From the NCBI GenBank assembly GCA_958295535.1, contig OY282356.1:1945614-2009613 (forward strand): 64,000 bases of DNA, in the 5' to 3' direction. The translations under genes and the position numbers were made by a program. The notes beneath the pieces were generated by a model. That model had not been told where the DNA came from, ran no database searches, and saw only the letters and a program-made list of their open reading frames with translations. The number at the start of each line of letters is the position of its first letter. Positions within the stretch are counted from its first letter, which is position 1. The DNA is from Gemmatimonadota bacterium. GTDB lineage: Bacteria; Gemmatimonadota; Gemmatimonadetes; Palauibacterales; Palauibacteraceae. This document shows positions 5,425 to 34,531 of the stretch, in pieces.

Positions 5425-6789
5425 TTGAAGTCGCTCCTGGCAAAGCTGCTCCCGGCATCCGCAAAGCTGCTCCCGGCATCCGACCGCCGCGCGGCCCGGC
5501 AGACCCTTTGGCTGGGCGCGATAACGGCGGTTCAGGCGCTGGCCGGCATAGTTCAACTGACGTTCTCGGCCCGGATTCTTGGGCCCGAAGGCTTCGGGAT
5601 CCTGGCCATCGTCATTGCCGCAGCCTCGCTCGTCTTCGGAATCGCCACGATGCCGGGCGAAGAGATCATCACGACCTACGTAACGCGAAGCGTAGCCCGA
5701 GGAAAACCGGAGGAGGCGGGAAGAGTGTTGCGGCTCGCCATGGGATCCGCGTTGGGCATGAGGCTGCTCTGCTACGGACTGATTGCGGCTGGAACGCACA
5801 TAGCCGCCGGACTCCTCGGCCTCGTCGACAACGTCTACGTGCTGCCAATGCTCCTTTACAGCGTCACGGGCGTTTTTACGTCCGTCTCCGGGGAAAGCGT
5901 CGCGGTGCTGAGACTAGCCGACCGGTTGCAGCTAGGCTTCGCGGTCATGGTGGCGAGCGCGCTGTCCGGGGCGGTGGTGCTCGTGTGGGCCTGGTCCGCC
6001 GGCGGCGGACTTCTCATGGTCATCATGTCGTCCGTCGCCAAGACCGCCGTGCTTGGAGCGGGGATGGCACTGTCCGTGGCGCTGTCGGCCGGGCGGGCGG
6101 GCGTGCCGGGATTTCTGCGCTCCCTGTCCGTCAAGGTTCCGCGAGACATCCGCAGATTTCAAATTGCGTCCTTCGGCAGGTCCTCCGTAGAGGCGCTGCA
6201 TGTCCACGCCGACGCGCTGCTGCTAGCAGGATTGACCGGCACGGTCCAAGTCGGGCTGTACCGTGCGGCCCGTTACATCATAGACGCCACGAAGTTGCCA
6301 TTCCTCGCTCTTGCCCAGGCGCTGCAGGTCGAATACAGCAGGCATTGGTTCGGGGCCGGCGGCGCAGGCGTCAGGAATCTGTCGCGTCGCTTCACGGCGC
6401 TGGCGGTGGCAGCGGGCGCAGCGGGATACGGACTGCTTCTTGCATTCCACCAACCCATCATTCGCATCCTGCTGGGCCCGGACTTCGCGGAGGCGGCTAG
6501 CCCTCTGCTGTTCATGCTTCCCGGCGCATTCATCTTTACCGGCATCGCGGCGCTATATGTCGTGCCTACGGCGACAGGCCGGGCCACTCCGCACTTGGTA
6601 GCCATGTCGGCCGCCGTGGCGGCGCAGGCTATCGTCATCGTATTGCTGGCGCCGAGCCACGGCGCAAACGGAGCTGCGTGGGCCGCCACTGCCCATTCCC
6701 TGGTCTTTGCCGCGACCATGATTCCGTTCGTAGTCCCGACACTCCGCCAAACCCGCAAGATCTCTCCTGCCACCGAGACATGTCGCTAA
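5425..6789 (+). CDS. Wzx-like polysaccharide flippase (MOP/polysaccharide biosynthesis protein family), copy 1
   Basis: 454-aa ORF that is multi-TM throughout. Its N-terminal region (SDRRAARQTLWLGAITAVQALAGIVQLTFSARILGPEGFGILAIVIAAASL) is paralogous to 22324..23637 (SDRLVVRQTSWMGAITAVRLLGGLAQLTIAARILGPEGFGVLAVIIAVAAL). This is the typical Wzx/RfbX-type architecture. The start is uncertain: the first 19 codons contain a 21-bp perfect tandem repeat, so the true start may be near 5480. Confidence 0.65.
   Translation: MKSLLAKLLPASAKLLPASDRRAARQTLWLGAITAVQALAGIVQLTFSARILGPEGFGILAIVIAAASLVFGIATMPGEEIITTYVTRSVARGKPEEAGRVLRLAMGSALGMRLLCYGLIAAGTHIAAGLLGLVDNVYVLPMLLYSVTGVFTSVSGESVAVLRLADRLQLGFAVMVASALSGAVVLVWAWSAGGGLLMVIMSSVAKTAVLGAGMALSVALSAGRAGVPGFLRSLSVKVPRDIRRFQIASFGRSSVEALHVHADALLLAGLTGTVQVGLYRAARYIIDATKLPFLALAQALQVEYSRHWFGAGGAGVRNLSRRFTALAVAAGAAGYGLLLAFHQPIIRILLGPDFAEAASPLLFMLPGAFIFTGIAALYVVPTATGRATPHLVAMSAAVAAQAIVIVLLAPSHGANGAAWAATAHSLVFAATMIPFVVPTLRQTRKISPATETCR
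5440..5481 (+). repeat. Perfect 21-bp tandem duplication (gcaaagctgctcccggcatcc x2) at the 5' end / leader of the Wzx-like gene
   Basis: Two identical adjacent 21-mers at 5440-5460 and 5461-5481. In the listed ORF frame they encode AKLLPAS AKLLPAS. Confidence 0.9.
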
Positions 6790-11526: not shown

Positions 11527-12424
11527 GCGGCGACCCCGCGCAAAGAGTCGCCCCCCGCGCAAAGAGTTGAGAATACTGAAAAGGCTAGTCCGCGATATCC
11601 TCCCGGCGCGGGCGCACGGCGCGCTCCGCCGGGCGGTGCGCGCCGTGCAGCTCGACCGAGCGCCTCCGATGGCGGTGGACGTTGCCCCGCTTCCGATGGC
11701 GGCGGAGATTTCATTCTCGGACTTGCTCTGCGGCAACGGCGCGGGCGCCGGATGGGAAGAGGCGAAATCTTCGATAGATGAAGTCTTCGAATACGCGCCG
11801 TGGGCCCACGCCACCGATCCCGAGAGCTGCCGGGCGATCTACCACCTGATTCGCCGTCTTCAACCGCGCTCCGTTCTGGAAATCGGCACCAACCGCGGCG
11901 CATCCACCTTATACTGCGCCATGGCGATGCGGGAGTATCGGAAGGCAGACCGCCCTCCTCCCCGTCTCGTCACCGTGGACTTGTTCGACGTCAACGACCT
12001 TGCCGCCGCCGAGGCCAAACGATACCGAATCTCCACTCGGCCACGGGATATGCTGGCCCGGCTGGACTGTGCCGACATGGTCGAGTTTTCCATCGCCCGG
12101 TCCACGGACTATCTTGGTGGCTGCGAGGCGGAGTTCGATTTCATTTTCCTGGATTACAGCCCCGTCGCGGATGTCGCCTACCGGGACATCGCGCTGGCAA
12201 CAAGGGCTCTGCGCCCGGGCGGACAGCTGTTGGTTCATTCCTACTTTCCGGACACGAAACCGCTGGGAACGGCCGAGCGCGTCAACTCCGACTCCTTCTT
12301 CGCCGTGCGCCGTCTGCGCCGGGAAGGCGCTCGCTTGGTCGCGTTGCCCCTGGGCGCGCTGCCCTGGCGGCGGGAGCAGGGCGGGTCGAACCTTACCAGT
12401 CTGGCCCTCCTGGCGAGGGAATGA
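11507..12424 (+). CDS. Class I SAM-dependent methyltransferase
   Basis: SAM-binding motif I (RSVLEIGTNRGASTLYCAMAM), an acidic loop (LVTVDLFD) and a post-II region (FDFIFLDYSP). The start is ambiguous: 11507 overlaps the gme end by 20 nt, and an alternative start is MAVDV near 11669. The stop overlaps the next gene start (ATGA). Confidence 0.6.
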   Translation: MPSRTSRRRPRAKSRPPRKELRILKRLVRDILPARAHGALRRAVRAVQLDRAPPMAVDVAPLPMAAEISFSDLLCGNGAGAGWEEAKSSIDEVFEYAPWAHATDPESCRAIYHLIRRLQPRSVLEIGTNRGASTLYCAMAMREYRKADRPPPRLVTVDLFDVNDLAAAEAKRYRISTRPRDMLARLDCADMVEFSIARSTDYLGGCEAEFDFIFLDYSPVADVAYRDIALATRALRPGGQLLVHSYFPDTKPLGTAERVNSDSFFAVRRLRREGARLVALPLGALPWRREQGGSNLTSLALLARE

Positions 12425-14043
12425 GCAACGGCGCACCGCCCTCGGGAACGCATGACATGGCCTACTTGACACGGGAGACTACGGAAATGCGGCAGTCCGA
12501 AGCGTCTCCCGCTCCCCTCCGCAAGCGGATCATGATAGTCGATCCGCCTTTCAAGCGTCTCTACCACGACAATGCCTCGCTGGTGAAGTTCCCCCTGGCG
12601 CTTGGCTATCTCTCGGGGGCGGTCCTGAAGTGGACGGATTGGGAGGTCCAGGCCTACAACGCCGACTTCAATCCGCATAGAAAAGCCATCTCGATCGACA
12701 ACGTGACCCGCATCAAGGAAGGAATGGACCGCTACCTGCGGACGCTGGAAGACTCGTCGGCGCCCATATGGGCAGAAATACGTTCGGCGATCACGGAGTT
12801 CGATCCGGGCATCGTCGGCATAAGCTCCAAGACGCAGAACTTTCCGTCCGCGATGAGGGTTGCGCGAATCGCCAAGGAGCATAATCCCGGCACGCTGGTC
12901 GTCTTGGGCGGCCCCCACGCCACCTTGTCCACTACGAGCGCGTTGGATTGCCCTGATATCGATGTGGCGGTGCTGGGCGAAGGCGAGATGACGCTGGTCG
13001 AGCTGATCGACGTCTGGGAAAAAGGGGCATCGCTGGGCGATGTGGCGGGACTGGCCTACCGCCAGGACGGTCGCAAGGCGTTCACGCCGCCGCGCGCCAA
13101 CATTCCCGATCTCGACGAACTGCCTTACCCGGCGGAAGCCGCGCCGCAAGTTCTTCGGGACTACGAAAGCTATCCGGCCAATGCCTTCGGATACGTCTTT
13201 TCGGCTCGCGGCTGCCCTTACAGTTGCACCTTCTGCGAGTCCAAAGCCATCTGGACGCAAAGAACCCGCTGGCGCTCGCCGGAAAACGTGGTGGGGGAAC
13301 TCAAGCTATTGATGGCGCGGGGCGTCCGGTACGTCTACTTCGACGATGACACCTTCGGCATCCACCCCCGCTACATCAAGGAACTGTGCGGTCTGATCGA
13401 AACCGAGTGCCGCGGACTCAAATGGGGTTGCGAGATAACCGTGGGCGTCGTCAAGGAGCGATCGGTCGAATACATGAGCCGTTCCCGCTGCGTGCGAGTC
13501 AATATCGGCATCGAGTCGGGCAACAACCGGATACTGCGGGCCGTCAAGAAGGGGCACACCATCGAGAAGGCGTATCCCGCCGTGGATCTTTGCCGACGGA
13601 AGGGTATTGAAGTCGGCGCCTTCTTCATGATCGGTTTCCCGTGGGAAACGGAAGATACGTTCCGAGACACGCTGACGGCCATCAAGAAGATTAACGCCGA
13701 CAACATCATGCTGAGCATTTTCACCCCCTATCCCGGCTCCGAGCTGTTCCAGGTGTGCAAGGAGCTAGGGGTGGTGGACGACGACTTCGACATCACGATT
13801 TACAATCACCAGAGTCCGGAGAACTGTTTCACCGCCTTTATCCTCCCGGAGCGTTTCAAGGAGCTGGTCCGGGAGGCGGCCTCTGTCGTCGGACGCAAGA
13901 ACAGCCGCGGCCGGCGGCGGCGGGTAGCCCGGATGCTGCGCCAGCGCGACTTCTATCGCACGGGGCAGATGGCAAGGCAGTTCCTCCTCACCCGCTTGGC
14001 GTGGTACTTGAACGGGCTGAAGCTGGTCTTCTCTAGGCGCTAG
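12421..14043 (+). CDS. B12-binding domain-containing radical SAM protein (class B radical SAM, methyltransferase-like)
   Basis: ATG at 12421 (MSNGAPPSG...); the listed ORF 11800..14043 includes an out-of-frame upstream extension. The N-terminal B12-binding-like domain (IMIVDPPF...GIVGISSKTQNFPSAMRVARIAKEHNPGTLVVLGGPHATL) is followed by a radical SAM CxxxCxxC motif (SARGCPYSCTFCES) and a TIM-barrel region. Confidence 0.8.
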   Translation: MSNGAPPSGTHDMAYLTRETTEMRQSEASPAPLRKRIMIVDPPFKRLYHDNASLVKFPLALGYLSGAVLKWTDWEVQAYNADFNPHRKAISIDNVTRIKEGMDRYLRTLEDSSAPIWAEIRSAITEFDPGIVGISSKTQNFPSAMRVARIAKEHNPGTLVVLGGPHATLSTTSALDCPDIDVAVLGEGEMTLVELIDVWEKGASLGDVAGLAYRQDGRKAFTPPRANIPDLDELPYPAEAAPQVLRDYESYPANAFGYVFSARGCPYSCTFCESKAIWTQRTRWRSPENVVGELKLLMARGVRYVYFDDDTFGIHPRYIKELCGLIETECRGLKWGCEITVGVVKERSVEYMSRSRCVRVNIGIESGNNRILRAVKKGHTIEKAYPAVDLCRRKGIEVGAFFMIGFPWETEDTFRDTLTAIKKINADNIMLSIFTPYPGSELFQVCKELGVVDDDFDITIYNHQSPENCFTAFILPERFKELVREAASVVGRKNSRGRRRRVARMLRQRDFYRTGQMARQFLLTRLAWYLNGLKLVFSRR

Positions 14044-14050
14044 CCCCTGC

Positions 14051-14950
14051 ATGGACATCTTGCGTTTTCCGACCCGCTATGCGCCCCGGCTGGTCAAGAA
14101 AGCGTACCGGCGCCTCTTCGGCGACGAGAAGTGGTTCCTGGTCGTGAACGCCGGCCGGCCCGTGGCCGATTCGGGAATCGACGGACGGGCGCCCGCGGCG
14201 CAGTTCAAAGTGCATCACGCTCCGCCCGGTCGTTTCTGGGCCGACCCCTTTCCCATAGTCGTCGACGGCCAGGTTTGGGTGTTCTTCGAGGATTACTCTT
14301 TTGCGTCGAAGAAGGCCGCTATCGCCTGCGCCCCGGTATCCGCCGACGGCGACCTGGGCGAAGTTGCCACCGCGTTGAAATGTTCGTATCATCTCTCCTA
14401 CCCGTTCGTCTTCGAGCGCCGGGGCCGGCTCTATCTGATTCCCGACACCTGGGACGAGAACCGCATCGACCTGTGGTGCTGCCGCCGATTCCCCGGCGAT
14501 TGGACCCGAGAACGGACGCTGCTGGACGGAGTGAGCATGAGCGACCCGACCCTGCACCGGCAGGACGGGAAGCTGTGGCTGTTCGGCACAGTGAGCGAAG
14601 CGAGGGCGAGGGCCAATGCCGAACTGCACATTTACATGGCCGATGCCCTGGACGGGGCGTGGCGGCCCCACCCGGCGAATCCGGTGGTGTCCGACCGCAG
14701 GCGGGCCCGTCCGGCGGGTCGGCTGTTCTTGCGGGACGGCCACCTGATTCGTCCGGGGCAGGATTGCAGCGGAGGCTACGGACGGGCGGTTGTCCTCAAC
14801 CGGGTCGACGCGCTGGACGAGCGCGCCTATGCCGAAACCCCCATCGGGCGCATTGACGGCTCCGGACTGCCCGGCAACCGGGGCACGCACACGATCAACT
14901 GCGCGGGCGGCCTCGAATTCCTCGACGGACGAGTCCTGCACCGGCATTGA
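14051..14950 (+). CDS. Hypothetical protein (299 aa), possibly a beta-propeller / glycoside-hydrolase-like fold; function unknown
   Basis: ORF with good coding character (WADPFPIVVDGQVWVFFEDY; LHIYMADALDGAWRPHPANPVV). Its last ~150 nt are duplicated at 17798..17945 as part of the 3-kb tandem repeat. Confidence 0.5.
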   Translation: MDILRFPTRYAPRLVKKAYRRLFGDEKWFLVVNAGRPVADSGIDGRAPAAQFKVHHAPPGRFWADPFPIVVDGQVWVFFEDYSFASKKAAIACAPVSADGDLGEVATALKCSYHLSYPFVFERRGRLYLIPDTWDENRIDLWCCRRFPGDWTRERTLLDGVSMSDPTLHRQDGKLWLFGTVSEARARANAELHIYMADALDGAWRPHPANPVVSDRRRARPAGRLFLRDGHLIRPGQDCSGGYGRAVVLNRVDALDERAYAETPIGRIDGSGLPGNRGTHTINCAGGLEFLDGRVLHRH

Positions 14951-16449
14951 GCACATTGAGACCTGACCGAAAGACGGCATTCAAGTTCGTCTTCGCGACA
15001 TTGCTCGTAGCGGCGGCCTTTTCCGCTACATATACGTCATCCGCGGCGGCCTTTTCCGAGTCGGACCTGAGAATCATTCTAAAACTCGGCGGAACGGTTA
15101 ACGCCGTCCTTTTGCTCGGCGCGCTGTTCTTCCTGCGCTCTGGAGTCATAGCGAACGCTGTCCTGTCGCTGATTGTGCTGGCCAGCGTTGCGACGGCGTA
15201 CATCATCCATACCGATCTCTATCTGACCGGAAACAGGGCCGTCCTCATTGCGCTATGCGCCGGATCCGGCGCAGGGCTGTTCGTCGCCTTCCGTGTCATC
15301 GACGAGCAGCGCTGGGGAGGCATTGCGCTCTCGGCGGCGGCGGCGCTCGGGCTTGGGATCATTGCCAGCGGGCACCGGAGGCCGACGATGTCCCCCGCAC
15401 CCGCAACGGTGGATACGACGTACATTCGGGACATCTCCTTCCGGGAGACGCCAAACCTGTATTTCGTTTCCTTCGATGCCCTGGCCCCACGCGCATTGCT
15501 CAAGAAATACCTTGGCTTGGAAACCACAAAATTTCATGATCTGTTCGATAATTACTTTCGCCGCTTCCCCAATTTCTTCGCCAACTCCGTCCCCACTATT
15601 GCTTCTCTCAACACTGTCTTGGCGCTGGACGTGGATGCGTATACCGCACAACGAAAGGAGTTGAATGCAGGGGGAGACAACTCTGAGCCGTCCTTGTTCT
15701 CTGGTCAATATCCGTCGAATCTCCTTGCAATCCTCCATGGAAACGGCTACGAGACAACATCAATCTATGTGGACAACTTTTTCGGGGACGAAAAGGGTCA
15801 ATATATCAACAACTACATCACGATCCAGAACAACACCGTCTGTAATAGACTGGACGCCAGCATATCGGATTTTGCTTTCTGGGGACATTGCCGGATCGGA
15901 AGAGGTGAGATGGATATGGTCGCCGAGCGGATCACCAGGGTGAACGCCAACGACAAGCCTCAATTCGTGATAGCTTACCTGTCCGTACCGACACATACTG
16001 GTAGCTCGTTCCGGTATGATGATGCGGAACAGCTCGAGGCATTCAGACGTGCCTACATCAACAATAGCGAACGAGCAGCTCGCTACCTGGATTTAGTCGT
16101 CCGGCACCTGGAAGAAAATGACCCTGGCGCCATCTTGCTCGTGTTCGGCGACCACGGCCCGTTCCTGTCTCGGGGGCTGCAGTTCGCGGACGATCCGGAG
16201 TTCGTCTTCCAGGACAATTACGGCATTCTGGGCGGCGTCTATCCCCGTGACACGTGCGCTCGGTGGTTCGACGAAGCATCGTCCCAGGATTACATGACGA
16301 TTCTGGACGCCGTTCACGCTCTGCTTCGCTGCCTGTCCGGCGGTGAAAGCCCACTCATCAAGCCGCACAGATATACGCGACCCGAGTACGGGCCTATCCC
16401 CCGGCACGATAGAGCTTACTACAGGGACTTTCTCTATGATTCTCGATGA
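14947..16449 (+). CDS. Membrane-anchored alkaline-phosphatase-superfamily (sulfatase-fold) phosphotransferase-like protein, copy 1
   Basis: TTG start overlapping the upstream stop. Four to five N-terminal TM helices precede a soluble domain with sulfatase/LTA-synthase-like motifs (FVSFDALAPRAL; LLVFGDHGPFLSRG). There is no Cys/Ser-x-Pro-x-Arg formylglycine motif, so it is more likely a phospho-substituent transferase/hydrolase than a true sulfatase. Confidence 0.7.
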   Translation: MSTLRPDRKTAFKFVFATLLVAAAFSATYTSSAAAFSESDLRIILKLGGTVNAVLLLGALFFLRSGVIANAVLSLIVLASVATAYIIHTDLYLTGNRAVLIALCAGSGAGLFVAFRVIDEQRWGGIALSAAAALGLGIIASGHRRPTMSPAPATVDTTYIRDISFRETPNLYFVSFDALAPRALLKKYLGLETTKFHDLFDNYFRRFPNFFANSVPTIASLNTVLALDVDAYTAQRKELNAGGDNSEPSLFSGQYPSNLLAILHGNGYETTSIYVDNFFGDEKGQYINNYITIQNNTVCNRLDASISDFAFWGHCRIGRGEMDMVAERITRVNANDKPQFVIAYLSVPTHTGSSFRYDDAEQLEAFRRAYINNSERAARYLDLVVRHLEENDPGAILLVFGDHGPFLSRGLQFADDPEFVFQDNYGILGGVYPRDTCARWFDEASSQDYMTILDAVHALLRCLSGGESPLIKPHRYTRPEYGPIPRHDRAYYRDFLYDSR

Positions 16450-16470
16450 TATGGACCAACACGGCACGAT

Positions 16471-16720
16471 ATGGCGATCGCCGCCACCGCATTTTGTCTT
16501 TGTGCCGACTGCGGCTCTCGCCTATGTCGATCCCGGCTCCGCCGGCTTCCTCATCACCAGTGTGCTGGGCTTTCTGGCGGCCTGTGGCTACATCATTCGG
16601 GGGGGCAGGGGCCGCTTGAAGCGCCGAATTCTTCATTCGGACAGGAAAGCGGCGGGCAGAGGCGGCGATGGTTCCGATTCCACGGACGCGCGTCCCAAGG
16701 ATGGAAGTGCTCAGGGCTGA
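16471..16720 (+). pseudogene. Small single-TM membrane protein, copy 1 (frameshifted relative to copy 2 at 19498..19740)
   Basis: Copy 2 reads MIAATAFVFVPTAAHAYVDPGSAGLVITSVLGALAAGGYIIRGYLGRLKRRILHSDRK. Copy 1 has a 1-nt insertion in a T-run (gcattttgtc vs gcgtttgtc). The MAIAATAF start is therefore out of frame with the conserved TM/basic-tail part, which lies in the frame of ORF 16343..16720. Confidence 0.3.
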
Positions 16721-17797
16721 CGGCGGGTCGTTCAAGGACCCGGCCGGACAAGTGTACCGGGTCATGCGGGACACCGGAGAGGCGAGCATCGTTCGCGGGT
16801 TGAATCCATCCGCCGCCAGAATAGTGGAGAACCTGCTTGCCGAGCCCTTTTTCCAGGACTTGGTCGATAACGGTCAGGTCGTGGCGACGCAGCTGCTCCA
16901 CCCGGAACTCCCCCACGCTCGGCACGTGATGAAGGAGGGCTGGAGCGCCGCCGTGGAGCATGAGGTGGTGGACTTCGTGACTTGGCCCTACGAGTGGCCG
17001 TTCTCGATGCTCAAGGACGCGGCGCTGCTGCGCAATTGCGGATACTGGAGACCGGAGCCAGAAACGGCTGGCTGCTCAAGGACGCGACGTCGTTCAACGT
17101 GCAATGGATGGGCGTACGCCCGGTATTCATCGACATACCGTCGTTCATCCCTTGGGAAGAGGGCGAATACTGGCGGGGGTATCGTCAATTCTGCGCGACC
17201 TTCCTGACACCGTTGCTGCTGACGGCGCATCTGGGCATCCCGTTCCACCCGCTGCTCCGCTCGCGCCTCGACGGCATCCCGCCAGAGGAAGCTAGTCGGT
17301 ACTTTCGTGGGCTGAGGCGTTTCAAGCGCGGAGTCCTGTCGCATGTCTGGCTTCCCGCCAAGGCCGAGCGCAGCGGCCCCCGATCGACGCGCCCACATCG
17401 ACGACAGCCGAAGACGATGCTGTTCGCGCTGTGGGACAGCCTGCGGCGGCTCATCGGCGGGTTGTCCAGTGGGCGGGCCCGTTCCACTTGGTCGCAATAC
17501 GCCAGGAATCATTCCTACGACGCAGCCGACTTCGAACGGAAGAAGGACTTCGTGCTACGGCACACCGCGGTGCGCGACCCTGGGCTGACTTGGGACCTGG
17601 GCGCGAATACCGGCGCGTTCGCGCGTATCGCCGCCGAGCACTCGGGGGTGGTCGCTGCCGTGGACGCGGATCACGATGCCGTCGATGATCTTTATCGCGA
17701 AGTGCGACAGAACGGACCGGAGAATGTCATTCCGCTGGTGATGGATCTGGCGAACCTCTCGCCGGGACAGGATTGGGCGGGTCGCGAGCGTCCGGAA
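16668..17797 (+). pseudogene. Two-domain methyltransferase-like gene, copy 1: frameshifted and 3'-truncated by the tandem-duplication junction
   Basis: Relative to the intact copy (19727..21130), copy 1 has a 2-bp insertion (ctgctgcgcaattgcgg vs ctgctgcaattgcgg, ~17027). This splits it into ORFs 16668..17207 and 16982..17854. It ends at the duplication junction (~17797) without its C-terminal third. Confidence 0.6.
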
Positions 17798-17958
17798 CCG
17801 GGTCGACGCGCTGGACGAGCGCGCCTACGCCGAAACCCCCATCGGGCGCATTGACGGCTCGGGACTGCCCGGCAACCGGGGCACGCACACGATCAACTGC
17901 GCGGGCGGCCTCGAATTCCTCGACGGACGAGTCCTGCACCGACGACAATAAACCGGCT

Positions 17959-19473
17959 TTGAGCGCATTGAGACCTGACCGAAAGACCGCATTCAAGTTC
18001 GTCTTCGCGACATTGCTCGTAGCGGTGGCCTTTGCCGCTACATATACGTCATCCGCAGCGGCCTTTTCCGAGTCGGACCTGAGAAGCATTCTAATGCTCG
18101 GCGGGACGGTTAACACCGTCCTTTTGCTCGGCGCGCTGTTCTTCCTGCGCTCTGGAGTCATAGCGAACGCTGTCCTGTCGCTGATTGTGCTGGCCAGCGT
18201 TGCGACGGCGTACATCATCCAGACCGATCTCTATCTGACCGGAAACGGGGCCGTCCTCATTGCGCTATGCGCCGGATCCGGCGCAGGGCTGTTCGTCGCC
18301 TTCCGTGTCATCGACGAGCAGCGCTGGGGAGGCATTGCGCTCTCGGCGGCGGCGTTGCTCGGGCTTGGGATTATTGCCAGCGGGCACCGGAGGCCGACGA
18401 TGTCCCCCGCACCCGCAACCGTGGATACGACGTACATTCGGGACATCTCCTTCCGGGAGACGCCAAACCTGTATTTCGTTTCCTTCGATGCCCTGGTCCC
18501 ACGCGCATTGCTCAAGAAATACCTTGGCTTGGAAACCACAAGATTTCATGATCTGTTCGATAATTACTTTCGCCGTTTCCCCAATTTCTTCGCCAACTCC
18601 GTCCCCACTATTGCTTCTCTCAACACTGTCTTGGCGCTGGACGTGGATGCGTATACCGCACAACGAAAGGAGTTGAATGCAGGGGGAGACAACCCTGAAC
18701 CGTCCTTATTCTCTGGTCAAGACCCGTCGAATCTCCTTGCAATCCTCCACGGAAACGGCTACGAGACAACATCAATCTATATGGACAACTTTTTCGGAGA
18801 CGAAAAGGGTCAATATATCAACAACTACATCACGATCCAGAACAACACCGTCTGTAATAGACTGGACGCCAGCATACGGGATTTTGCTTTCTGGGGATAT
18901 TGCCGGTTCGGAAGAACTGCGTGGTTCACTGCAATGGATATGGTCGCCGAGCGGATCACCAGGGTGAACGCCAACGACAAGCCTCAATTCGTGATAGCTT
19001 ACCTGTATGCACCGGGACATACTGATAACTCATTCCGGTATTATGATGCGGAAGAGCTCGAGGTATTCAGACGCGCCTACGTCAACAATAGCGAACGAGC
19101 AGCTCGCTACCTAGCTTTAGTCGTCCGGCACCTGCAAGAAAATGACCCTGGCGCCATCTTGCTCGTGTTCGGCGACCACGGCCCGTACCTGTCTCGGGGG
19201 CTGCAATTCGAGGACGATCCGGATTTCGTCTTCCAGGACAAGTACGGCATTCTGGGCGGCGTCTATCCCCGGGATGTGTGCGTTAGGTGGTTCGACGAAG
19301 CATCGTCCCAGGATTACATGACGATTCTGGACGCCGTTCACGCTCTGCTTCGCTGCCTGTCCGGCGGTGAAAGCCCGCTCATCAAGCCGCACAGATATAC
19401 GCGACCCGAGTACGGGCCGATCCCCCGGCACTATAGAGCTTACTACAGGGACTTTCTCTATGATTCTCGATGA
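17959..19473 (+). CDS. Membrane-anchored alkaline-phosphatase-superfamily (sulfatase-fold) phosphotransferase-like protein, copy 2
   Basis: TTG 17959 is equivalent to the copy-1 start (LSALRPDRKTAFKF...). Full-length paralog (LLVFGDHGPYLSRG). The listed ORF 17773..19473 includes read-through of the duplicated upstream fragment. Confidence 0.7.
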   Translation: MSALRPDRKTAFKFVFATLLVAVAFAATYTSSAAAFSESDLRSILMLGGTVNTVLLLGALFFLRSGVIANAVLSLIVLASVATAYIIQTDLYLTGNGAVLIALCAGSGAGLFVAFRVIDEQRWGGIALSAAALLGLGIIASGHRRPTMSPAPATVDTTYIRDISFRETPNLYFVSFDALVPRALLKKYLGLETTRFHDLFDNYFRRFPNFFANSVPTIASLNTVLALDVDAYTAQRKELNAGGDNPEPSLFSGQDPSNLLAILHGNGYETTSIYMDNFFGDEKGQYINNYITIQNNTVCNRLDASIRDFAFWGYCRFGRTAWFTAMDMVAERITRVNANDKPQFVIAYLYAPGHTDNSFRYYDAEELEVFRRAYVNNSERAARYLALVVRHLQENDPGAILLVFGDHGPYLSRGLQFEDDPDFVFQDKYGILGGVYPRDVCVRWFDEASSQDYMTILDAVHALLRCLSGGESPLIKPHRYTRPEYGPIPRHYRAYYRDFLYDSR

Positions 19474-19497
19474 TATAGACCAACACGGCGCGACCAG

Positions 19498-19740
19498 TTG
19501 ATCGCCGCCACCGCGTTTGTCTTTGTGCCGACCGCGGCTCACGCCTACGTCGACCCCGGCTCCGCCGGCTTGGTCATCACCAGTGTGCTGGGCGCTCTGG
19601 CAGCCGGTGGCTATATCATCCGGGGGTACTTGGGCCGCTTGAAGCGCCGGATTCTCCATTCGGACAGGAAAGCGGTGGCAGGCGGCGACGGTTCCGATTC
19701 CACAGACGCGCGTCCCGACGACGGAAATGCTCAGGGCTGA
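19498..19740 (+). CDS. Small membrane protein (80 aa; one TM helix plus basic tail), copy 2
   Basis: MIAATAFVFVPTAAHAYVDPGSAGLVITSVLGALAAGGYIIRGYLGRLKRRILHSDRKAVAGGDGSDSTDARPDDGNAQG. It is conserved in both repeat copies, lies between the sulfatase-fold gene and the methyltransferase-like gene, and its end overlaps the next gene start. Confidence 0.4.
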   Translation: MIAATAFVFVPTAAHAYVDPGSAGLVITSVLGALAAGGYIIRGYLGRLKRRILHSDRKAVAGGDGSDSTDARPDDGNAQG

Positions 19741-21130
19741 CGGCGGGTCTTTCAAGGACCCGGCCGGACAAGTGTACCGGGTCATGCGGGACACCGGAGA
19801 GGCGAGCATCGTTCGCGGGTTGAATCCATCCGCCGCCGGAATAGTGGAGAACCTGCTTGCCGAGCCCTTTTTCCAGGACTTGGTCGATGATGGTCAGGTC
19901 GTGGCGACGCAGCTGCTCCACCCGGAACTCCCCAACGCTCGGCACGTGATGAAGGAGGGCTGGAGCGCCGCCGTGGAGCATGAGGTGGTGGACTTCGTGA
20001 CTTGGCCCTACGAGTGGCCGTTCTCGATGCTCAAGGACGCGGCGCTGCTGCAATTGCGGATACTGGAGACCGGAGCCAGAAACGGCTGGCTGCTCAAGGA
20101 CGCGACGTCGTTCAACGTGCAATGGATGGGCGTACGCCCGGTATTCATCGACATACCGTCGTTCATCCCTTGGGAAGAGGGCGAATACTGGCGGGGGTAT
20201 CGTCAATTCTGCGCGACCTTCCTGACACCGTTGCTGCTGACGGCGCATCTGGGCATCCCGTTCCACCCGCTGCTCCGCTCGCGCCTCGACGGCATCCCGC
20301 CAGAGGAAGCAAGTCGGTACTTTCGTGGGCTGAGGCGTTTCAAGCGCGGCGTCCTGTCGCATGTCTGGTTTCCCGCCAAGGCCGAGCGCAGCGGCCCCCG
20401 ATCGACGCGCCCACATCGACGACAGCCGAAGACGATGCTGTTCGCGCTGTGGGACAGCCTGCGGCGGCTCATCGGCGGGTTGTCCAGCGGGCGGGCCCGT
20501 TCCACTTGGTCGCAATACGCCAGGAATCATTCCTACGACGCAGCCGACTTCGAACGGAAGAAGGACTTCGTGCTACGGCACACCGCGGTGCGCGACCCTG
20601 GGCTGACTTGGGACCTGGGCGCGAATACCGGCGCGTTCGCGCGTATCGCCGCCGAGCACTCGGGAGTGGTCGCTGCCGTGGACGCGGATCACGATGCCGT
20701 CGATGAGCTTTATCGCGAGGTGCGGCAGAGCGGACCGGAGAATGTCATTCCGCTGGTGATGGATCTGGCGAACCTCTCGCCGGGACAGGGTTGGGCGGGT
20801 CGCGAGCGCCCGGCGTTCGATGCGCGGCGAAGCCCCGACATGGTGCTTTGCCTAGCTTTGGTTCATCACCTGAGGGTCGTGGCGAACATCCCGTTGCGGC
20901 TGTTCATTGGCTGGTTGCGAAGCTTGGACGCGACCTGCATCCTGGAGTTCGTCGGGCGGAACGACGAGATGTTCCAAACCCTCCTGGAGAACAAGCGGGA
21001 GCACTATGCGGACTACACCGCCGAGAACTTCGAATCGGAAGTTCGCAGATGCTTCTCCGTTCGCGACCGGTTGAAATTGAAAGGCGGCTTGCGGGAACTG
21101 TTCTTGCTGGAGCCTGCTAACGGTCGGTAG
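19727..21130 (+). CDS. Two-domain protein: N-terminal domain of unknown function + C-terminal class I SAM-dependent methyltransferase (intact copy)
   Basis: 467 aa. The C-terminal half carries SAM motif I (TWDLGANTGAFARIAAEHSGVVAAVDAD), the acidic residue (VMDLAN) and a post-motif (MVLCLALVHHL). The N-terminal ~240 aa (SFNVQWMGVRPVFIDIPSF...) are unassigned. Confidence 0.65.
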   Translation: MLRADGGSFKDPAGQVYRVMRDTGEASIVRGLNPSAAGIVENLLAEPFFQDLVDDGQVVATQLLHPELPNARHVMKEGWSAAVEHEVVDFVTWPYEWPFSMLKDAALLQLRILETGARNGWLLKDATSFNVQWMGVRPVFIDIPSFIPWEEGEYWRGYRQFCATFLTPLLLTAHLGIPFHPLLRSRLDGIPPEEASRYFRGLRRFKRGVLSHVWFPAKAERSGPRSTRPHRRQPKTMLFALWDSLRRLIGGLSSGRARSTWSQYARNHSYDAADFERKKDFVLRHTAVRDPGLTWDLGANTGAFARIAAEHSGVVAAVDADHDAVDELYREVRQSGPENVIPLVMDLANLSPGQGWAGRERPAFDARRSPDMVLCLALVHHLRVVANIPLRLFIGWLRSLDATCILEFVGRNDEMFQTLLENKREHYADYTAENFESEVRRCFSVRDRLKLKGGLRELFLLEPANGR

Positions 21131-21243
21131 CGTTCTGTGTTTGGAGTAGAAGCAGGAGAGCCCGGATTGCGAGCATTGTGGGGGTGCCGCGCCAGCGCAA
21201 TTCGCGCGGGGAGAATGCCAAGGTGTCAGATCCTCCCCGCACG

Positions 21244-22323
21244 ATGAAGGTTCTGCTCCTGGGACCGCTGCCCGCCAAGCCGGCATCCCTTGCAGAACCC
21301 ATTGGCGGGGCCAGGGTGACTTTCGCGGAAGCGGTCCGAGAGTTGAACCTGCGGGGCTTCGATCTCGACATCATCGACACGGCCAGACCCAGGCCCAATC
21401 TGCCCCTTTGGAAGATTTGGGGTTACGAACTTCTCACCTTCGGGCGGGTGATCCGGAAAGTCCTGTGGAGGGCCCGGCGCTCCGATGTGGTGTTCCTTCA
21501 CATGTCGGCCTATCCGGCGCTGTTGGCGGCGTCCGCCATCCGGACGCTGTGCCGGGCACTGCGCCGTCCTCTGGCGCTGCGGTTTTTCGGGGACAGCCTC
21601 TACTTCACCTACCAGCGTTACGGGCCGGTTCGCCGCTGGCTGATGGACCGGACGTGTCTCCGGGCCTCGCTGGTGTACGAGGAAAGGCGGACGCTCCGGG
21701 AGTTCGGCAGACGGGACAACTTCCGCTGGCTGGCCAACACCAGGGACATCGCCCCCGTGGAAACCGGGCGAGACCGGGATAGAGTCCGCAGGCTGCTGTT
21801 CATGGGCCAGCTCAGGAAGGAGAAGGGGCTGGCCGAAGCGCTGGAGGCCTGCCGCGCACTGCCCGATGACTGCCATCTCCGAGTGTTTGGCCCCCGCATG
21901 CCCAATACCGACTTCTCCCTGTTCGACGGCCACCCCAGGGCGAGCTACGGCGGGGCGCTGGAACCGGAGGAGGTACCTCGCATCCTCTCCCAACACGACC
22001 TGCTGCTGTTCCTCAGCTACATGAGAAGCGAGGGCACTCCAGGAGTCATCATAGAAGCCTTCCAGTGCGGCGTGCCGGTCGTAGCGACCTCGATAGGCGG
22101 AATCCCCGAGCAGGTGGAACACGAGAAGAGCGGGCTGCTGGTGGAGCCACGCTCCGTCCCCGAGTTGAAGTCGGCGATCGAGCGGCTGATCGGCGACCCG
22201 GCTCTGTACCGGCGGCTCTGCGCCGGGGCTAGGCAGCGCGGCGAGTTCTTCCGCGGCGGGCGCCACTTCGACCGGTTGGCCGAGGAACTGCGGGGCTTGG
22301 TCCGCATTTACCGGCGGCCGTAG
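21244..22323 (+). CDS. Glycosyltransferase family 4 (GT-B), paralog of 47091..48245
   Basis: ATG 21244 (MKVLLLGPLPAKP). C-terminal GT4 region LLLFLSYMRSEGTPGVIIEAFQCGVPVVATSIGGIPEQVEHEKSGLLV. The paralog on the minus strand at 47091..48245 is colinear (..NFRWLANTRDIAP.. vs ..NFKWFPNTREIEAP..). Confidence 0.8.
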   Translation: MKVLLLGPLPAKPASLAEPIGGARVTFAEAVRELNLRGFDLDIIDTARPRPNLPLWKIWGYELLTFGRVIRKVLWRARRSDVVFLHMSAYPALLAASAIRTLCRALRRPLALRFFGDSLYFTYQRYGPVRRWLMDRTCLRASLVYEERRTLREFGRRDNFRWLANTRDIAPVETGRDRDRVRRLLFMGQLRKEKGLAEALEACRALPDDCHLRVFGPRMPNTDFSLFDGHPRASYGGALEPEEVPRILSQHDLLLFLSYMRSEGTPGVIIEAFQCGVPVVATSIGGIPEQVEHEKSGLLVEPRSVPELKSAIERLIGDPALYRRLCAGARQRGEFFRGGRHFDRLAEELRGLVRIYRRP

Positions 22324-23637
22324 ATGTCGGACCGGCTCGTCGTGCGGCAGACCTCCTGGATGGGCGCCATCACGGCGGTCCGGCTATTGGGCGGACTGGC
22401 CCAGCTGACCATCGCCGCGCGGATACTCGGACCTGAAGGCTTCGGCGTCCTGGCCGTCATCATCGCGGTGGCGGCGCTCATCCACGGTCTTCTGGCCGCA
22501 CCCGGCGGCGAAGCCGTCACAACTTTCGTAACGCGAGCCCTGGCGGAGGAAAGGACGCAGGAAGCGTCCCGGATAGTGCGTTTCACGATGGCCGCGTCTC
22601 TGGGGCTGTCGGTCCTCGCCTACGCCTTTATTGCCATCCTCGTCCTCGCGTCAAGCAGCCTGCTGGGGATCGATAACGCCTACCGGGACATAGCGCTCAT
22701 GTACGGCGTCGTGGGCATCTTCCTGGCTACCCAGACGGAAAGCCTGGCGGTCCTGCGGCTGTCCGACCGGGTATCTCTGGGTTTGATAATCGCTCTGGCG
22801 GGCGTTCTGATCCGAGTCGCCCTGCTCGGAATAGCGTTGTTGCAGGGAGGCGGGCTGTCCGAGGTGGTCTTGGCCCATATTGCCGGCGTCGTAGTGGGCG
22901 GGGGCGGGATGCTGGCTGCAGCGGCAGTATCGGCGCCACGGGCGGGGATACCCGGTCTCCTGAGCTCGTTATCGCTCAGAGCGCCGCCTGAAGTGGTGCG
23001 CTTCCAGGCCGGAGCATTCGGGAGATCCGCCTTCTCTGCGCTGGCCTGCAACTTGGACACTCTCTTGGTGGCCCAGTTTACCGGCGCCGCGGGCGCAGGA
23101 CTGTACCGGGCGGCGAGGCAGATTGCCGACACCGGACACTATCCGTTTCAGCCATTGAAGGATGGCGTGCAACTTCAATACAGCAGACAGTGGTACTCGG
23201 GCCAGGGCGGGATGCTGCGCCGCACCTCGCTGCGGTTCGGCTTGGCGTCGTTCGCTGCGGCGGTAGCGCTGTTCGGGCTGCTTGCCGTCTTCCATCAACC
23301 CTTGGCCCGGTTCTTCCTGGGCGAGGAGTTCGCAGGCGTCGCCCCGCTTCTGCTGATCATGACTCTCGGCGCCTTCGCCATCAACAGCATTTCCGCGCTT
23401 GCCGTGCTGCCGGCGGCTATTGGACGAGTCTGGCCGTCGTTGGCGGCGGAAATCGGCAGTCTGACAATTTTCGTCGCGCTCATCGCATGGCTGGTTCCGC
23501 TGCACGGCGCGGCGGGCGCGGCCTGGGCAAATGCCGCTTACTACAGTGTCATCGCCTTGATTATGGTCCCCTTCATAATCTCGGCCCTGCGGCAAAGCCG
23601 TCGTTTACGGCAGAACGTCACCCCGCGTAGGCCTTAA
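22324..23637 (+). CDS. Wzx-like polysaccharide flippase (MOP family), copy 2
   Basis: ATG directly after the upstream TAG. 437 aa, polytopic. The N-terminus is paralogous to 5425..6789. Confidence 0.7.
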   Translation: MSDRLVVRQTSWMGAITAVRLLGGLAQLTIAARILGPEGFGVLAVIIAVAALIHGLLAAPGGEAVTTFVTRALAEERTQEASRIVRFTMAASLGLSVLAYAFIAILVLASSSLLGIDNAYRDIALMYGVVGIFLATQTESLAVLRLSDRVSLGLIIALAGVLIRVALLGIALLQGGGLSEVVLAHIAGVVVGGGGMLAAAAVSAPRAGIPGLLSSLSLRAPPEVVRFQAGAFGRSAFSALACNLDTLLVAQFTGAAGAGLYRAARQIADTGHYPFQPLKDGVQLQYSRQWYSGQGGMLRRTSLRFGLASFAAAVALFGLLAVFHQPLARFFLGEEFAGVAPLLLIMTLGAFAINSISALAVLPAAIGRVWPSLAAEIGSLTIFVALIAWLVPLHGAAGAAWANAAYYSVIALIMVPFIISALRQSRRLRQNVTPRRP

Positions 23638-30845: not shown

Positions 30846-33133
30846 GGTACGGCTTTCCCGCCATCCGCCGACTCGACAACATCGAAGCTGCCCTCCCAGA
30901 TCTTCTGGCCCTCGCCGGTGAACTGGCCGGTGCGGATCGCGGTGATGCCGTAGTCGGGCAGATCCAGCCGGGCTACGCAGACTCGTCCGTCGACAAGGTG
31001 GTTCCTCAAATCAAAGTCGAGATTGTCGAAGCCGTACTGCTTGCGATGGCCGGGGAGGTCGTTCCTGTCAACCGGGTCCAGATGCACGAAGAACATTGGT
31101 TCGGCATCCTCCGGACTGCATGAGTCCTTGGCGTAGATGAGGCCGTCTTCAACAAGATACACATCCCAGTCGGAGCGGATGGTCGGCGGGCCGTCTCCGG
31201 CCAGTCTTGCCATGTAATCGCCCATCGGCACTGTTTCGATCCTGACCGTCTGGAGCGCATTGCGGGGCAGCACGAGCGCGGCCACGCACAAGCCCGTTTG
31301 CGTTCGCGTCCAGGCTTTGGCGACCGTTTCCTCTCCCGGACCAACCCCTGACAACACTATCAACTCGTTCGGCGCACAATTCCTGACGAACGCCTGCGTC
31401 AGCCGGCCGTCCACGATCAATCCGATGCTATCCGACTGGCGGTCGAAGTGGGGTTCAATCCTCTCCCAAGTCCTGGCGACGGTATTTTCATCTGCCGGAT
31501 TTTCATCTGTCGGCAGCCCGATGGGCCGTAGTTGGAGTTCCACTCCATTCAGGATGCTTGGCAGTCTCTCAAAGTGCTTGATTAAGGCCAAATGAGTTAT
31601 TCCGGCGCTATCCGCGTTTCCCGTGTGGAAGTAGTCATAAGAGTTGACCAAGCCATCCAGGTTCACCACTGGAAAGCGCGAGAAATACCCGATGGTGCCG
31701 CCCATGTCCCGCGCCCCGAACACGCCGTCCTCGGGATGCACGCGATTCATAATCTGCGTACCCCCATAAACGGCTTCAGTCCATTCATTGTTAGAAACGG
31801 CCTTGATCCATTTGTCGTCAGTTCTGGTTGAGACGCTGATCGCTTCAGCACGCCGAAATGGCTCGGTGAAATCGGCCTTGGCAAACAGGGATACCGCGGC
31901 GGCAATTGCAATGCCCACGCTCAGAATGTTTGCCGCCCAAGGCGACCTCGGTCCGATGAAACGGCGGATGAAGTAAATGGCGACGTAACCTCGCACGGGA
32001 ACGATCAGCGTCATCAGCAGGTACGCCGGGACAAAATACCAAGGCCAAGGCCCCAAGGAAGGGTGAATCGTGAGAACAGTCTGCGCGAATTTGGCCAGAT
32101 GGCCGGCTGCCAAACTGAACACGCCCACCAGAAATGCCAGCTGCAGCCAGTCCTCCCGACTCCGGGAGCGGCGGGCGAACCACCAAACGAGCAGGACATA
32201 GAAGCAGACCTCCAGCGCGACCAACAGCTCGTAGTCGAAGGCGGGAAGATGAAGGATGTCCCGGAAGTTCTGAACGAAGCTGTACCCGCCTTCCCGCTCC
32301 CACCGCTGCTGCGACCACATCTGCTTGGTTGCGCCGCTCACGGGCGTCACGCCCCCGAAGACGGTACCGTTATATGCGAAGTACACGAGGATGCCGACGA
32401 CCGCGCCCAGTAGTGGTGCGACGTGTTCATCGCGAGCACGGAATGGCCAACCCCTCTCGGGGGTGCCGAGGCCCTCTCCATCTCCCTCGACAGGGGGGAG
32501 TGACTCACGCCTCGACCACTCGACGAAGCACAGCGCCGCGGTCGCCGCCAGCGATATGGCGATGTACTCCAGGCGCACCCAGGGCAGGACAAAGGCGACC
32601 GCGGCCAGCGTCCACTTCCACCGCGCCGGGTTTCGTGCAAAGAGACAGACGGCCAGAATGAACAGGCCCAGCATGAACAGCGCCGCCGCCGCTTCCATTC
32701 CTGCAGTCATGAAGGTGATGTGGTAGAGCATCGGCAGCGCGGCGAACATCAGATACCACGGCATGCGCGCCAGCCGGGCGGCCGCGGCGACGAGCGCCAC
32801 GCCGCCGGCCACGAGCATGATCTCGAACGCCTTGATGGCGAACAGCGCGGCTTCCTTGTCGAATGCCCAGTAGAACGGCGTGATCAGAAACATCCAGATC
32901 GGATGATATCCGTTGGTGCGCGTTATGCCGCCGTCGAAGGTCGAGAACTTCCCCTCGGCCAGGTTGCTGGCGATCTGGAAGTAGTAAAAGGCGTCATCGT
33001 GCGTGTTGGAGATAAGGCTGATGAGATCGAAGCGGCCGAGCATGTACCAGGCGAACCCGGCCCCGTACGCCAGGATGCCCGCGACGAACAGGACGAACAG
33101 CGCGTTGCTCAGCCGGGAAGACGAGGTCCTCAC
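30842..33133 (-). CDS. ArnT/PMT_2-like GT-C membrane glycosyltransferase, paralog 2, with shared C-terminal domain
   Basis: First-loop motif THDDAFYYFQIASNLAEGKF, ~12 TM helices and a large periplasmic domain. CTD: TIRSDWDVYLVEDGLIYAKDSCSPEDAEPMFFVHLDPVDRNDLPGHRKQYGFDNLDFDLRNHLVDGRVCVARLDLPDYGITAIRTGQF. It lies between dprE1 and dprE2 homologs with 4-bp overlaps on both sides. Confidence 0.75.
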   Translation of the reverse strand: MRTSSSRLSNALFVLFVAGILAYGAGFAWYMLGRFDLISLISNTHDDAFYYFQIASNLAEGKFSTFDGGITRTNGYHPIWMFLITPFYWAFDKEAALFAIKAFEIMLVAGGVALVAAAARLARMPWYLMFAALPMLYHITFMTAGMEAAAALFMLGLFILAVCLFARNPARWKWTLAAVAFVLPWVRLEYIAISLAATAALCFVEWSRRESLPPVEGDGEGLGTPERGWPFRARDEHVAPLLGAVVGILVYFAYNGTVFGGVTPVSGATKQMWSQQRWEREGGYSFVQNFRDILHLPAFDYELLVALEVCFYVLLVWWFARRSRSREDWLQLAFLVGVFSLAAGHLAKFAQTVLTIHPSLGPWPWYFVPAYLLMTLIVPVRGYVAIYFIRRFIGPRSPWAANILSVGIAIAAAVSLFAKADFTEPFRRAEAISVSTRTDDKWIKAVSNNEWTEAVYGGTQIMNRVHPEDGVFGARDMGGTIGYFSRFPVVNLDGLVNSYDYFHTGNADSAGITHLALIKHFERLPSILNGVELQLRPIGLPTDENPADENTVARTWERIEPHFDRQSDSIGLIVDGRLTQAFVRNCAPNELIVLSGVGPGEETVAKAWTRTQTGLCVAALVLPRNALQTVRIETVPMGDYMARLAGDGPPTIRSDWDVYLVEDGLIYAKDSCSPEDAEPMFFVHLDPVDRNDLPGHRKQYGFDNLDFDLRNHLVDGRVCVARLDLPDYGITAIRTGQFTGEGQKIWEGSFDVVESADGGKAVP

Positions 33134-34422: not shown

Positions 34423-34531
34423 CCGGCAATCGACGGATGGATACCGACCCCAGCCCGAGAGGATTATGCGGCCCGCTCCCGGAACGCGAAGCGCGGACCA
34501 AGAAACGCGGGCGCCGCCGTGCCCGCGCGCG

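Follow-up and report, generated by a model that had tools for sequence, protein, structure and literature searches.

The genes noeA and noeB are referred to, in the passages of PMC4053727 and PMC9048898 that cite Ardourel et al. 1995, as host-range nodulation genes of Sinorhizobium. A member of the same family, Lani_1194 of Legionella anisa, has been described as a fusion of an atypical kinase with a class I methyltransferase, in which an Arg takes the place of the catalytic Lys and the equivalents of D166, N171, and D184 are conserved (Krysinska et al. 2022, PMC9758233). In 816 gene neighbourhoods of this family the small protein Lani_1193 was a neighbour in 65% and a YejM/EptA-like protein (Lani_1195/NoeB) in 38%, and the published survey counted about 2000 NoeA/NoeB-type homologues (PMC9758233). 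Here we describe a related cassette in a Gemmatimonadota bacterium (assembly GCA_958295535.1), located in a 64,000-nucleotide stretch of contig OY282356.1 (positions 1,945,614 to 2,009,613, forward strand) that we refer to as the window. The cassette encodes a membrane-anchored alkaline-phosphatase-superfamily protein (SULF), a small membrane protein (SMALL), and a kinase-methyltransferase (KinMT), and most of it is present twice. Our overall explanation, to which we assign a probability of roughly 60%, is that the window holds a duplicated NoeA/NoeB-type cassette whose retained SULF paralogues take part in decorating an envelope or secreted glycoconjugate. That the duplication is real and that the cassette belongs to the NoeA/NoeB-type family, both taken together, we regard as highly probable.

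An initial annotation of the window, made from the letters alone, had proposed a 3-kb direct tandem duplication at about 95% identity, and self-alignment bears this out. Gapped local alignment pairs copy 1 (14792..17795, also delimited by repeat families D1-D6) with copy 2 (17790-20813) at 95.97% identity, with 122 mismatches over 3026 aligned nucleotides, and a repeat finder returned six colinear direct-repeat blocks in the window with start-to-start spacings of 2998-3024 nt (all features named here lie on the plus strand unless stated otherwise). The junction (17795..17796) was located by comparing 17775-17812 with 20795-20830 and 14780-14810, and reads GAGCGTCCGG followed, across the breakpoint, by AACCGGGTCGAC. 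Its left side equals 20797-20813, in the interior of the intact methyltransferase gene, and its right side equals the sequence from 14798 onward, inside a GINT1_N-like gene (14051..14950, 299 aa; Pfam PF24793, E 1.8e-38), so that the fusion of a methyltransferase interior to the 3' end of this gene was correctly described. The ccgg microhomology proposed for it was not: both CCGG motifs are retained with AA between them, the true overlap is only 0-1 nt, and the junction therefore does not strictly qualify as one of microhomology. The expected duplicate of the gene tail occupies 17796..17951 (156 nt), encodes residues 246-298 at 96% identity (tblastn), and keeps its own TAA stop. Copy 2 is longer by 14 nt at 17938-17951, between this tail and the start of the second SULF gene, and by 12 nt at 18916-18929, which are four codons ('TAWF') within that gene. 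Copy 1 is longer by 1 nt at 16491 in the small-ORF (open reading frame) region, by 3 nt at 16656-16658, and by 2 nt at 17030-17031, where a GC dinucleotide is duplicated (GCTGCTGC[GC]AATTG).

The two SULF copies of the window are mutual nearest relatives, with 93% identity to each other and at most 81% to any other SULF, and the tail of the flanking gene was duplicated along with them. Because of both observations, the segment that spans the last 155 nt of the GINT1_N-like gene and everything up to KinMT codon ~362 was duplicated in tandem and in situ; the copies are adjacent and colinear, share a novel junction, and are closest to each other, as a tandem segmental duplication entails. By construction, this event yielded one extra complete SULF, one extra SMALL, and one 3'-truncated KinMT. 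A frameshift then arose in the truncated KinMT, and both SULF genes remained open with every conserved catalytic residue.

The intact kinase-methyltransferase, KinMT (19727..21130, 467 aa), is a full-length homologue of NoeA, with 34% identity over residues 6-462 (BLASTP, E 5e-84), and a tblastn search of plasmids matched it to the annotated noeA gene in 57 Sinorhizobium pSymA records. The protein had been read as a methyltransferase with an extra N-terminal domain; the two domains stand, and the N-terminal one proves to be atypical protein-kinase-like. Residues R30, D125, N130, and D142 do not vary among 32 relatives and align with NoeA, with the Arg replacing the catalytic Lys and the remainder equivalent to D166, N171, and D184 of PKA. 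A structure check of 19727..21130, which the initial annotation had recommended, agrees with this assignment, as Foldseek matched the KinMT model to the kinase folds of RioK1, Rio2, PknG, Csk, and DMPK at E 2-5e-5, besides methyltransferases. The C-terminal part is a class I S-adenosylmethionine (SAM) methyltransferase domain, and the protein, which we place in the cytoplasm, carries neither a signal peptide nor a transmembrane (TM) helix. The N-domain by itself matches about 3300 representative clusters; it gave no Pfam match at E<=10 and no significant PDB sequence match in protein or profile searches.

The copy-1 counterpart, MT1 (16707..17795), is a pseudogene, as had been claimed. The GC insertion at 17030-17031 leaves residues 1-109 and 105-362 in different frames (tblastn), and the junction cuts the gene at codon ~362. 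Because MT1 ends at the junction, it was born without the C-terminal ~105 residues of the methyltransferase domain, and the frameshift came later. MT1 is the only part of copy 1 that is clearly dead. The view of the first copy as decaying thus holds for MT1 and fails for the first SULF gene, which departs from conserved residues at 4 sites against 5 in the second, and for the first small ORF, which is open over 94 codons.

Both SULF genes are intact, as first reported, and the 4-codon indel between them is confirmed. The proteins sulf1 (14947..16449, 500 aa) and sulf2 (17962..19473, 503 aa, assigned by Pfam and family comparison) are 93% identical, with 42 differing alignment columns including the indel. 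The hidden Markov model assignment that had been suggested as a check places both in PF00884, at 35.7 and 37.5 bits respectively (cut-off 25). TTG is the apparent start codon at both 14947 and 17962; public annotation begins sulf2 at an internal ATG (459 aa, P0001), with which the first predicted TM helix would be lost. An AlphaFold model shows five helices at the N-terminus and an alpha/beta domain predicted with confidence, giving the multi-TM anchor and extracytoplasmic alkaline-phosphatase-fold (AP-fold) domain of LtaS/EptA-type enzymes, and the basic N-terminus and five helices would put the catalytic domain outside the cell. SULF gave no significant PDB sequence match in single-protein or profile searches.

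Conservation among 62 SULF copies is concentrated at D/E176 (60/62), T/S216 (62/62), H353 (61/62), D405-H406 (62/62), and four invariant Cys. Of these residues, sulf1 keeps D176, T216, H353, D405-H406, and the four Cys, and sulf2 likewise keeps all of the catalytic and disulfide Cys residues. The formylglycine signature C/S-x-P-x-R of sulfatases is missing from the same copies, with Ser at position 213 in 31/62, a variable position 215, and Arg at position 217 in 16/62. T216 was equated with LtaS T300 and EptA T280 by its position at a helix N-terminus rather than by residue-level superposition. The invariance of T/S216 and the metal ligands, together with the missing formylglycine signature, supports a putative outward-facing Thr-nucleophile phosphotransferase or phosphodiesterase and favours this over a sulfatase.

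SMALL is conserved across phyla. In other genomes it is an 89-aa ORF whose ATG overlaps the SULF stop and whose product begins with a textbook signal peptide (MSRPIRRDLLIGATVFVFVPTAAHA ahead of YVDPGS...). In the window, small2 (19498..19740; found by homology and publicly annotated as P0241) encodes an 80-aa single-pass membrane protein, with an AHA-YVDPGSAG motif, a TM helix, and a basic stretch, and overlaps the KinMT start by 14 nt. We infer an N-out, single-pass topology with the YVDPG motif outside and the basic stretch inside. BLASTP aligns small2 at 35% identity (E 1e-10) with a 71-aa ORF (AHAYLDPGTGS...) upstream of noeA in S. meliloti; no Pfam match was returned for SMALL at E<=10. 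Its copy-1 counterpart, small1 (16436..16720, P0269), has the conserved AYVDPGSAGF-TM-RxxxRLKRR core behind a scrambled N-terminus, and public annotation calls both ORFs (80 aa and 94 aa).

An 11-nt insertion (TTCTCGATGAT) is common to both copies at the SULF stop and small-ORF start (16425-16500 and 19449-19520) and absent from the cassettes of five other genomes. It adds two residues to SULF and abolishes the canonical ATG and the n-region of the small protein's signal peptide; because both copies carry it, it predates the duplication. The conserved part of small2 can start only at a TTG (LIAATAFVFVPTAAHA ahead of YVDPG...), and the basic n-region is gone. In small1, the extra nucleotide at 16491 brings the insertion to 11+1 = 12 nt and returns the conserved part to the frame of the ATG at 16436 (MILDDMDQHGTIWRSPPPHFVFVPTAALA ahead of YVDPG...). 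The 1-nt insertion that had been taken as a lesion is therefore present and is not simply lethal, as it restores the frame to a canonical ATG.

Divergence between the copies is uneven. By 150-nt bins, identity is 86-91% in the small-ORF region, 89-98% in SULF, and 97-100% in the methyltransferase part, such that the dead MT1 is the least diverged portion, with 0.8% unique substitutions against 6.3% (16 copy-1-unique substitutions in 253 nt) in the small1 region. A hot spot at 16450-16706 versus 19474-19726 has 13% mismatch, with 16/33 differences unique to copy 1, and adjoins an MT1 diverged by 1.6%. Gene conversion between the methyltransferase parts, an imported patch, or local selection may each possibly account for this pattern. 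Both alleles occur in other cassettes at 35-45% of the mismatched sites, a fraction inseparable from recurrent mutation at weakly constrained sites; this is suggestive of imported alleles, for which we make no claim. The synonymous divergence (dS) of sulf1 and sulf2 is 0.064 and the nonsynonymous divergence (dN) 0.039, giving a dN/dS of 0.61 that rises to about 1.06 in residues 290-420, and MT1 and KinMT have a dS of 0.034 and a dN/dS of 0.29. When polarised on six outgroup cassettes, the two SULF copies have changed about equally. In a 31-member alignment, sulf1 departs at four well-conserved sites (L132A, R306S, Y313H, and G352T) and sulf2 at five, including the otherwise invariant H87.

The same three genes recur widely. 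Protein searches found 347 relatives of SULF and 2750 of the methyltransferase protein, often with several SULF paralogues per contig. Scanning one genome per species gave a set of 49 loci in which a relative shares 60-94% identity with the 467-aa protein, and one more at 32%. The order SULF-SMALL-KinMT is kept in 46/49, and blastn with boundary alignments delimits a shared unit of ~3.17 kb (17961..21137 in the window): similarity to the window starts at 17955-17993 and stops at 21114-21137, from the SULF start codon to ~20 nt past the KinMT stop. Outside these bounds, none of the 49 loci has the GINT1_N gene of the window or relatives, at 35% identity or more, of its radical SAM, glycosyltransferase family 4 (GT4), and flippase genes, and the called neighbours are unrelated metabolic genes and insertion sequence (IS) elements. 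The G+C of the cassette is usually 0.58-0.62 (range 0.56-0.70) and falls under that of the flanks (0.51-0.73) in most loci. The loci come from metagenome-assembled genomes (MAGs) titled as Gammaproteobacteria/Pseudomonadales, Latescibacteria, Chloroflexota/Dehalococcoidia/Caldilineaceae, Candidatus Entotheonella, Vicinamibacterales, Binatia, Nitrospirales, Longimicrobiales, Pedosphaera, Spirochaetia, Acidimicrobiales, and Azotimanducaceae, for more than 10 phyla in all, and the dS between 'Latescibacteria' and 'Gammaproteobacteria' cassettes is only 0.17-0.27. Sharp bounds, unrelated flanks, the G+C offset, and low cross-phylum dS together show that the three-gene unit has spread horizontally across phyla in recent times. 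The triad had been presented as a decoration module of the local glycan; its three-gene composition is upheld, and it is not native to the glycan cluster, being a horizontally spread, noeA/noeB-like cassette.

IS and transposase genes (DDE_Tnp_1_4, IS1595, ISRm1, IS4, and IS21) occur a few kb or less from the cassette or its NoeA-type relatives in five annotated contexts (L001 13220-13882, L053 6318-7010, L055 9159-10378, L056 3735-5078, and L057 9093-11322), and these nearby elements hint at how the cassette moves.

Amplification of SULF is also recurrent. In 12/49 loci, 2 to about 7 SULF genes lie near a single intact KinMT, several with KinMT remnants. Some remnants arose by internal deletion (residues 207-356 lost in L045 and L001, and 81-353 in L005) and others are fragments (323-403 in L010, 2-45 in L024, and 1-53 in L019). 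SULF arrays surround one KinMT at L039 113-14705 (~7 genes), L019 2910-9892 (4), and L037 4586-13037 (4), in Acidimicrobiales and Caldilineaceae MAGs. Same-locus paralogues are mutually nearest in the window, L010, L019, L020, L037, and L049, and the SULF duplications in these loci therefore arose independently; the paralogues of other loci are older. Comparisons of SULF across genomes give a dN/dS of 0.35-0.57, and those of paralogues or of copies from one genome give 0.27-1.8, with the L019 array at 0.75-1.8 (one pair at 1.79). KinMT, at 0.15-0.38, evolves much more slowly than SULF. The window event is one instance of a general tendency, in which SULF copies are kept and diversify and surplus KinMT is lost.

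Our best guess for the function of the cassette is phospho-decoration of an envelope or secreted glycoconjugate. The specific sequence of steps that follows is put forward tentatively. KinMT may phosphorylate and/or methylate a lipid-linked or membrane-proximal substrate at the cytoplasmic face, possibly producing a (methyl)phosphorylated group, with an analogy in WbdD, a bifunctional kinase-methyltransferase of E. coli that adds a methyl-phosphate cap to the O9a O-antigen. SMALL could tether or couple KinMT to the membrane enzyme, as BcsF might be taken to do in BcsEFG. Outside the membrane, and through a Thr-phosphoenzyme intermediate like those of LtaS and EptA, SULF would move the phospho-substituent onto an exported glycan or another surface or secreted molecule. 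An extra SULF paralogue would broaden or alter acceptor specificity or raise dosage, with one KinMT serving both, and the cassette probably influences host perception of the bacterium, in the way that noeA and noeB do genetically in Sinorhizobium. The polysaccharide encoded in the window is a plausible acceptor, given a co-oriented and abutting operon, and is not a required one, as the cassette sits in unrelated contexts elsewhere. Methylated phosphoethanolamine or phosphocholine chemistry, as proposed for the module at the outset, is speculation.

Some of the same observations could be explained by a neutral and transient duplication, in which all of copy 1 is heading for loss and the intact sulf1 ORF reflects only its youth. 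The death of MT1, the scrambled N-terminus and many unique changes of small1, the four conserved-site departures of sulf1, and a SULF dN/dS of 0.61 (about 1.06 in residues 290-420) are all consistent with such a course. However, sulf2 departs at five conserved sites, including the otherwise invariant H87, the catalytic residues and disulfide Cys are complete in both copies, and MT1 was frameshifted within 1.1 kb while 1.5 kb of sulf1 stayed open. Moreover, an intact extra SULF accompanied by degraded KinMT recurs in 12 other loci, some of them far older (paralogue identity down to ~45-75%), and we consider a neutral origin unlikely. We give very little credence to an assembly artefact, in which the haplotypes of a single locus from two strains would have been assembled head-to-tail. 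The window is apparently metagenome-assembled, its relatives are all MAGs, and 4% divergence is within the range of strain variation, but the junction joins non-homologous sequences that share no overlap by which an assembler might have linked them, the junction-side copy bears the frameshift expected of a real redundant pseudogene, and divergence is uneven along the repeat. The same architecture is also found in many independent long-read assemblies, and the public protein set of the 3.07-Mb source contig contains both paralogues (P0001/P0282 and P0241/P0269). The earlier view of a genuine, somewhat aged duplication is upheld.

SULF might instead be a true sulfatase or a non-enzymatic PbgA/YejM-like lipid sensor, and the triad no phosphotransfer module, as the Pfam match to Sulfatase (PF00884) could be taken to imply. 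We find this improbable, since the sulfatase signature is missing and the invariant T/S216 sits at a helix N-terminus as in LtaS and EptA, the five-TM anchor is typical of LtaS/EptA/OpgB-type transferases, and the near-invariance of D/E176, D405-H406, and H353 over 62 copies argues for catalysis. Cross-phylum spread, variable copy number, neighbouring IS elements, and a weak PADLOC match of the methyltransferase domain to mad2 (E 6e-9) would also fit a role in anti-phage defence or as another kind of selfish mobile system. This match covers only the generic SAM-binding region, though, and SULF and SMALL have no PADLOC match; the cassette includes no nuclease, ATPase, or recombinase, a KinMT alignment scan of IMG/VR contigs found no relatives, and the characterised relatives are nodulation host-range genes, leaving a defence role very improbable.

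Several points weigh against the decoration of a glycoconjugate by retained SULF paralogues of a NoeA/NoeB-type cassette. The duplication is read from assembled sequence alone, the dN/dS of 0.61 between the window copies is explained equally well by relaxed constraint and by diversification, and small1 may have lost its function. Only a minority of the cassette loci sit in glycan clusters, so that the link to the window polysaccharide may be coincidental. The best structural match of SULF is PbgA/YejM, which is regarded as a lipopolysaccharide sensor and not an enzyme. The gene order SULF-SMALL-KinMT differs from the known SMALL-KinMT-APfold order, and the pairwise similarity of SULF to NoeB is not significant beyond the GDHG motif (E 0.03-0.1), so that orthology is not established. 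Any donor, acceptor, or reaction order proposed for the cassette is a guess.

Gene calls around the cassette rest on homology, as the window has a G+C of 63.5% and abundant long spurious ORFs. The cassette lies immediately 3' of the GINT1_N-like gene, co-oriented with and translationally abutted to a polysaccharide operon; the last ~155 nt of the GINT1_N-like gene fall within the duplicated segment, and the stop codon of this gene shares bases with the TTG at which sulf1 starts. Wzy_C, GT4, glycosyltransferase family 2, and epimerase genes lie 5' of the cassette region, and a GT4 gene followed by a Wzx-like flippase lies 3' of the intact KinMT, which identifies the surroundings as a Wzx/Wzy-type polysaccharide cluster. 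When metagenomes were scanned with the GINT1_N-like protein, no pre-duplication relative of the locus was found, and GINT1_N, SULF, SMALL, and KinMT gave no NCBIfam match. Just upstream of the GINT1_N-like gene, a B12-binding radical SAM gene (11800-14043, 747 aa) encodes a protein whose N-terminal ~320 residues have no Pfam match and whose best NCBIfam similarities are to HpnJ and BchE, followed more weakly by P-methyltransferases (PhpK family), all far under the cut-offs. The Wzx-like flippases at 5425-6789 and 22324-23637 are paralogous (46% identical), as are the GT4 genes at 21178-22323 and 47091-48245 (minus strand; 54% identical), and the window thus carries a second flippase and a second GT4 besides those flanking the cassette. 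At 33130-36103 (minus strand), a FAD_binding_4 protein beside a UbiA-family prenyltransferase resembles the DprE1 and phosphoribosyltransferase genes of decaprenyl-phospho-arabinose pathways, and several nearby ORFs of 600-940 aa have no Pfam match.

The duplication itself is an ordinary evolutionary event, and the family-level pattern that it exposes is of moderate interest. The NoeA/NoeB-type unit is widespread and genetically tied to host range in a model symbiosis; to this we add that a bounded three-gene version moves between phyla, that its membrane enzyme is fast-evolving and amplified, and that one KinMT suffices for several SULF. These facts point to a division of labour between conserved cytoplasmic chemistry and variable, outward-facing specificity, and the natural series of SULF paralogues (2-7 copies) suits tests of acceptor specificity. 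Judged by taxon names, the set of carriers (Entotheonella, Caldilineaceae, Dehalococcoidia, Binatia, Latescibacteria, and others) resembles the microbiome of a high-microbial-abundance sponge; the accession prefixes of these MAGs fall within the submission ranges of Wellcome Sanger. We hypothesize, as a possibility we hold to be rather doubtful, that the cassette is a horizontally exchanged host-interaction determinant of a multi-phylum and probably sponge-associated symbiont community, in which SULF duplication and fast evolution diversify phospho-decoration. If true, this would parallel the nod/noe tuning of rhizobial host range, with the window duplication as a recent and still-readable instance. 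In the corrected annotation of the window, each SULF gene is given a TTG start, one KinMT becomes a pseudogene, one fragment of a gene tail is marked, and two small ORFs have altered N-termini.

Compared with known phospho-substituent systems, the cassette shares parts with several. SULF has the architecture of LtaS, EptA (MCR-1, EptC), OpgB, GacH, BcsG, and PbgA/YejM at a sequence identity of only 10-14%, and unlike the LtaS/EptA-type transferases it is always paired with a kinase-methyltransferase. WbdD combines the same two activities as those predicted for KinMT, but in the reversed domain order (methyltransferase-kinase-coiled coil); KinMT has no coiled coil and no detectable sequence homology to it, and WbdD has no AP-fold partner. 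In the BcsE-BcsF-BcsG system of phosphoethanolamine cellulose, BcsE is a cyclic di-GMP-binding regulator and not a kinase-methyltransferase; SMALL is likened to BcsF by architecture, and no homology between them was seen, no comparison having been made.

The closest system is (orf)-noeA-noeB, or Lani_1193-1195. KinMT and NoeA correspond over their full length, with the same kinase motifs (R, D-x4-N, and a DFG-equivalent Asp) and a C-terminal methyltransferase, and both systems have a 70-90-aa AHA-Y-x-D-P-G membrane protein overlapping the KinMT start and an adjacent membrane-anchored AP-fold protein. NoeB, encoded downstream of noeA, is a 553-aa protein with PF00884, which it has in common with SULF. 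The SMALL-KinMT-APfold order is found on a Novosphingobium plasmid, with a small ORF upstream of the KinMT homologue and mannose-nucleotide, glycosyltransferase, and export genes beside it, and on a Singulisphaera plasmid. Pairwise comparisons of SULF with NoeB and with the Novosphingobium and Singulisphaera AP-fold proteins give non-significant E values of 0.03-0.6, and by sequence the AP-fold partners of the NoeA-type family appear very divergent from one another. In contrast to noeA-noeB, the window cassette has no nod box or nodL, and its subfamily retains 60-94% identity among the MAGs of many phyla and has a repeatedly amplified AP-fold gene, a feature not reported in PMC9758233. What is new relative to the known NoeA/NoeB-type unit is thus the permuted gene order, the spread across phyla, and the amplification of SULF.

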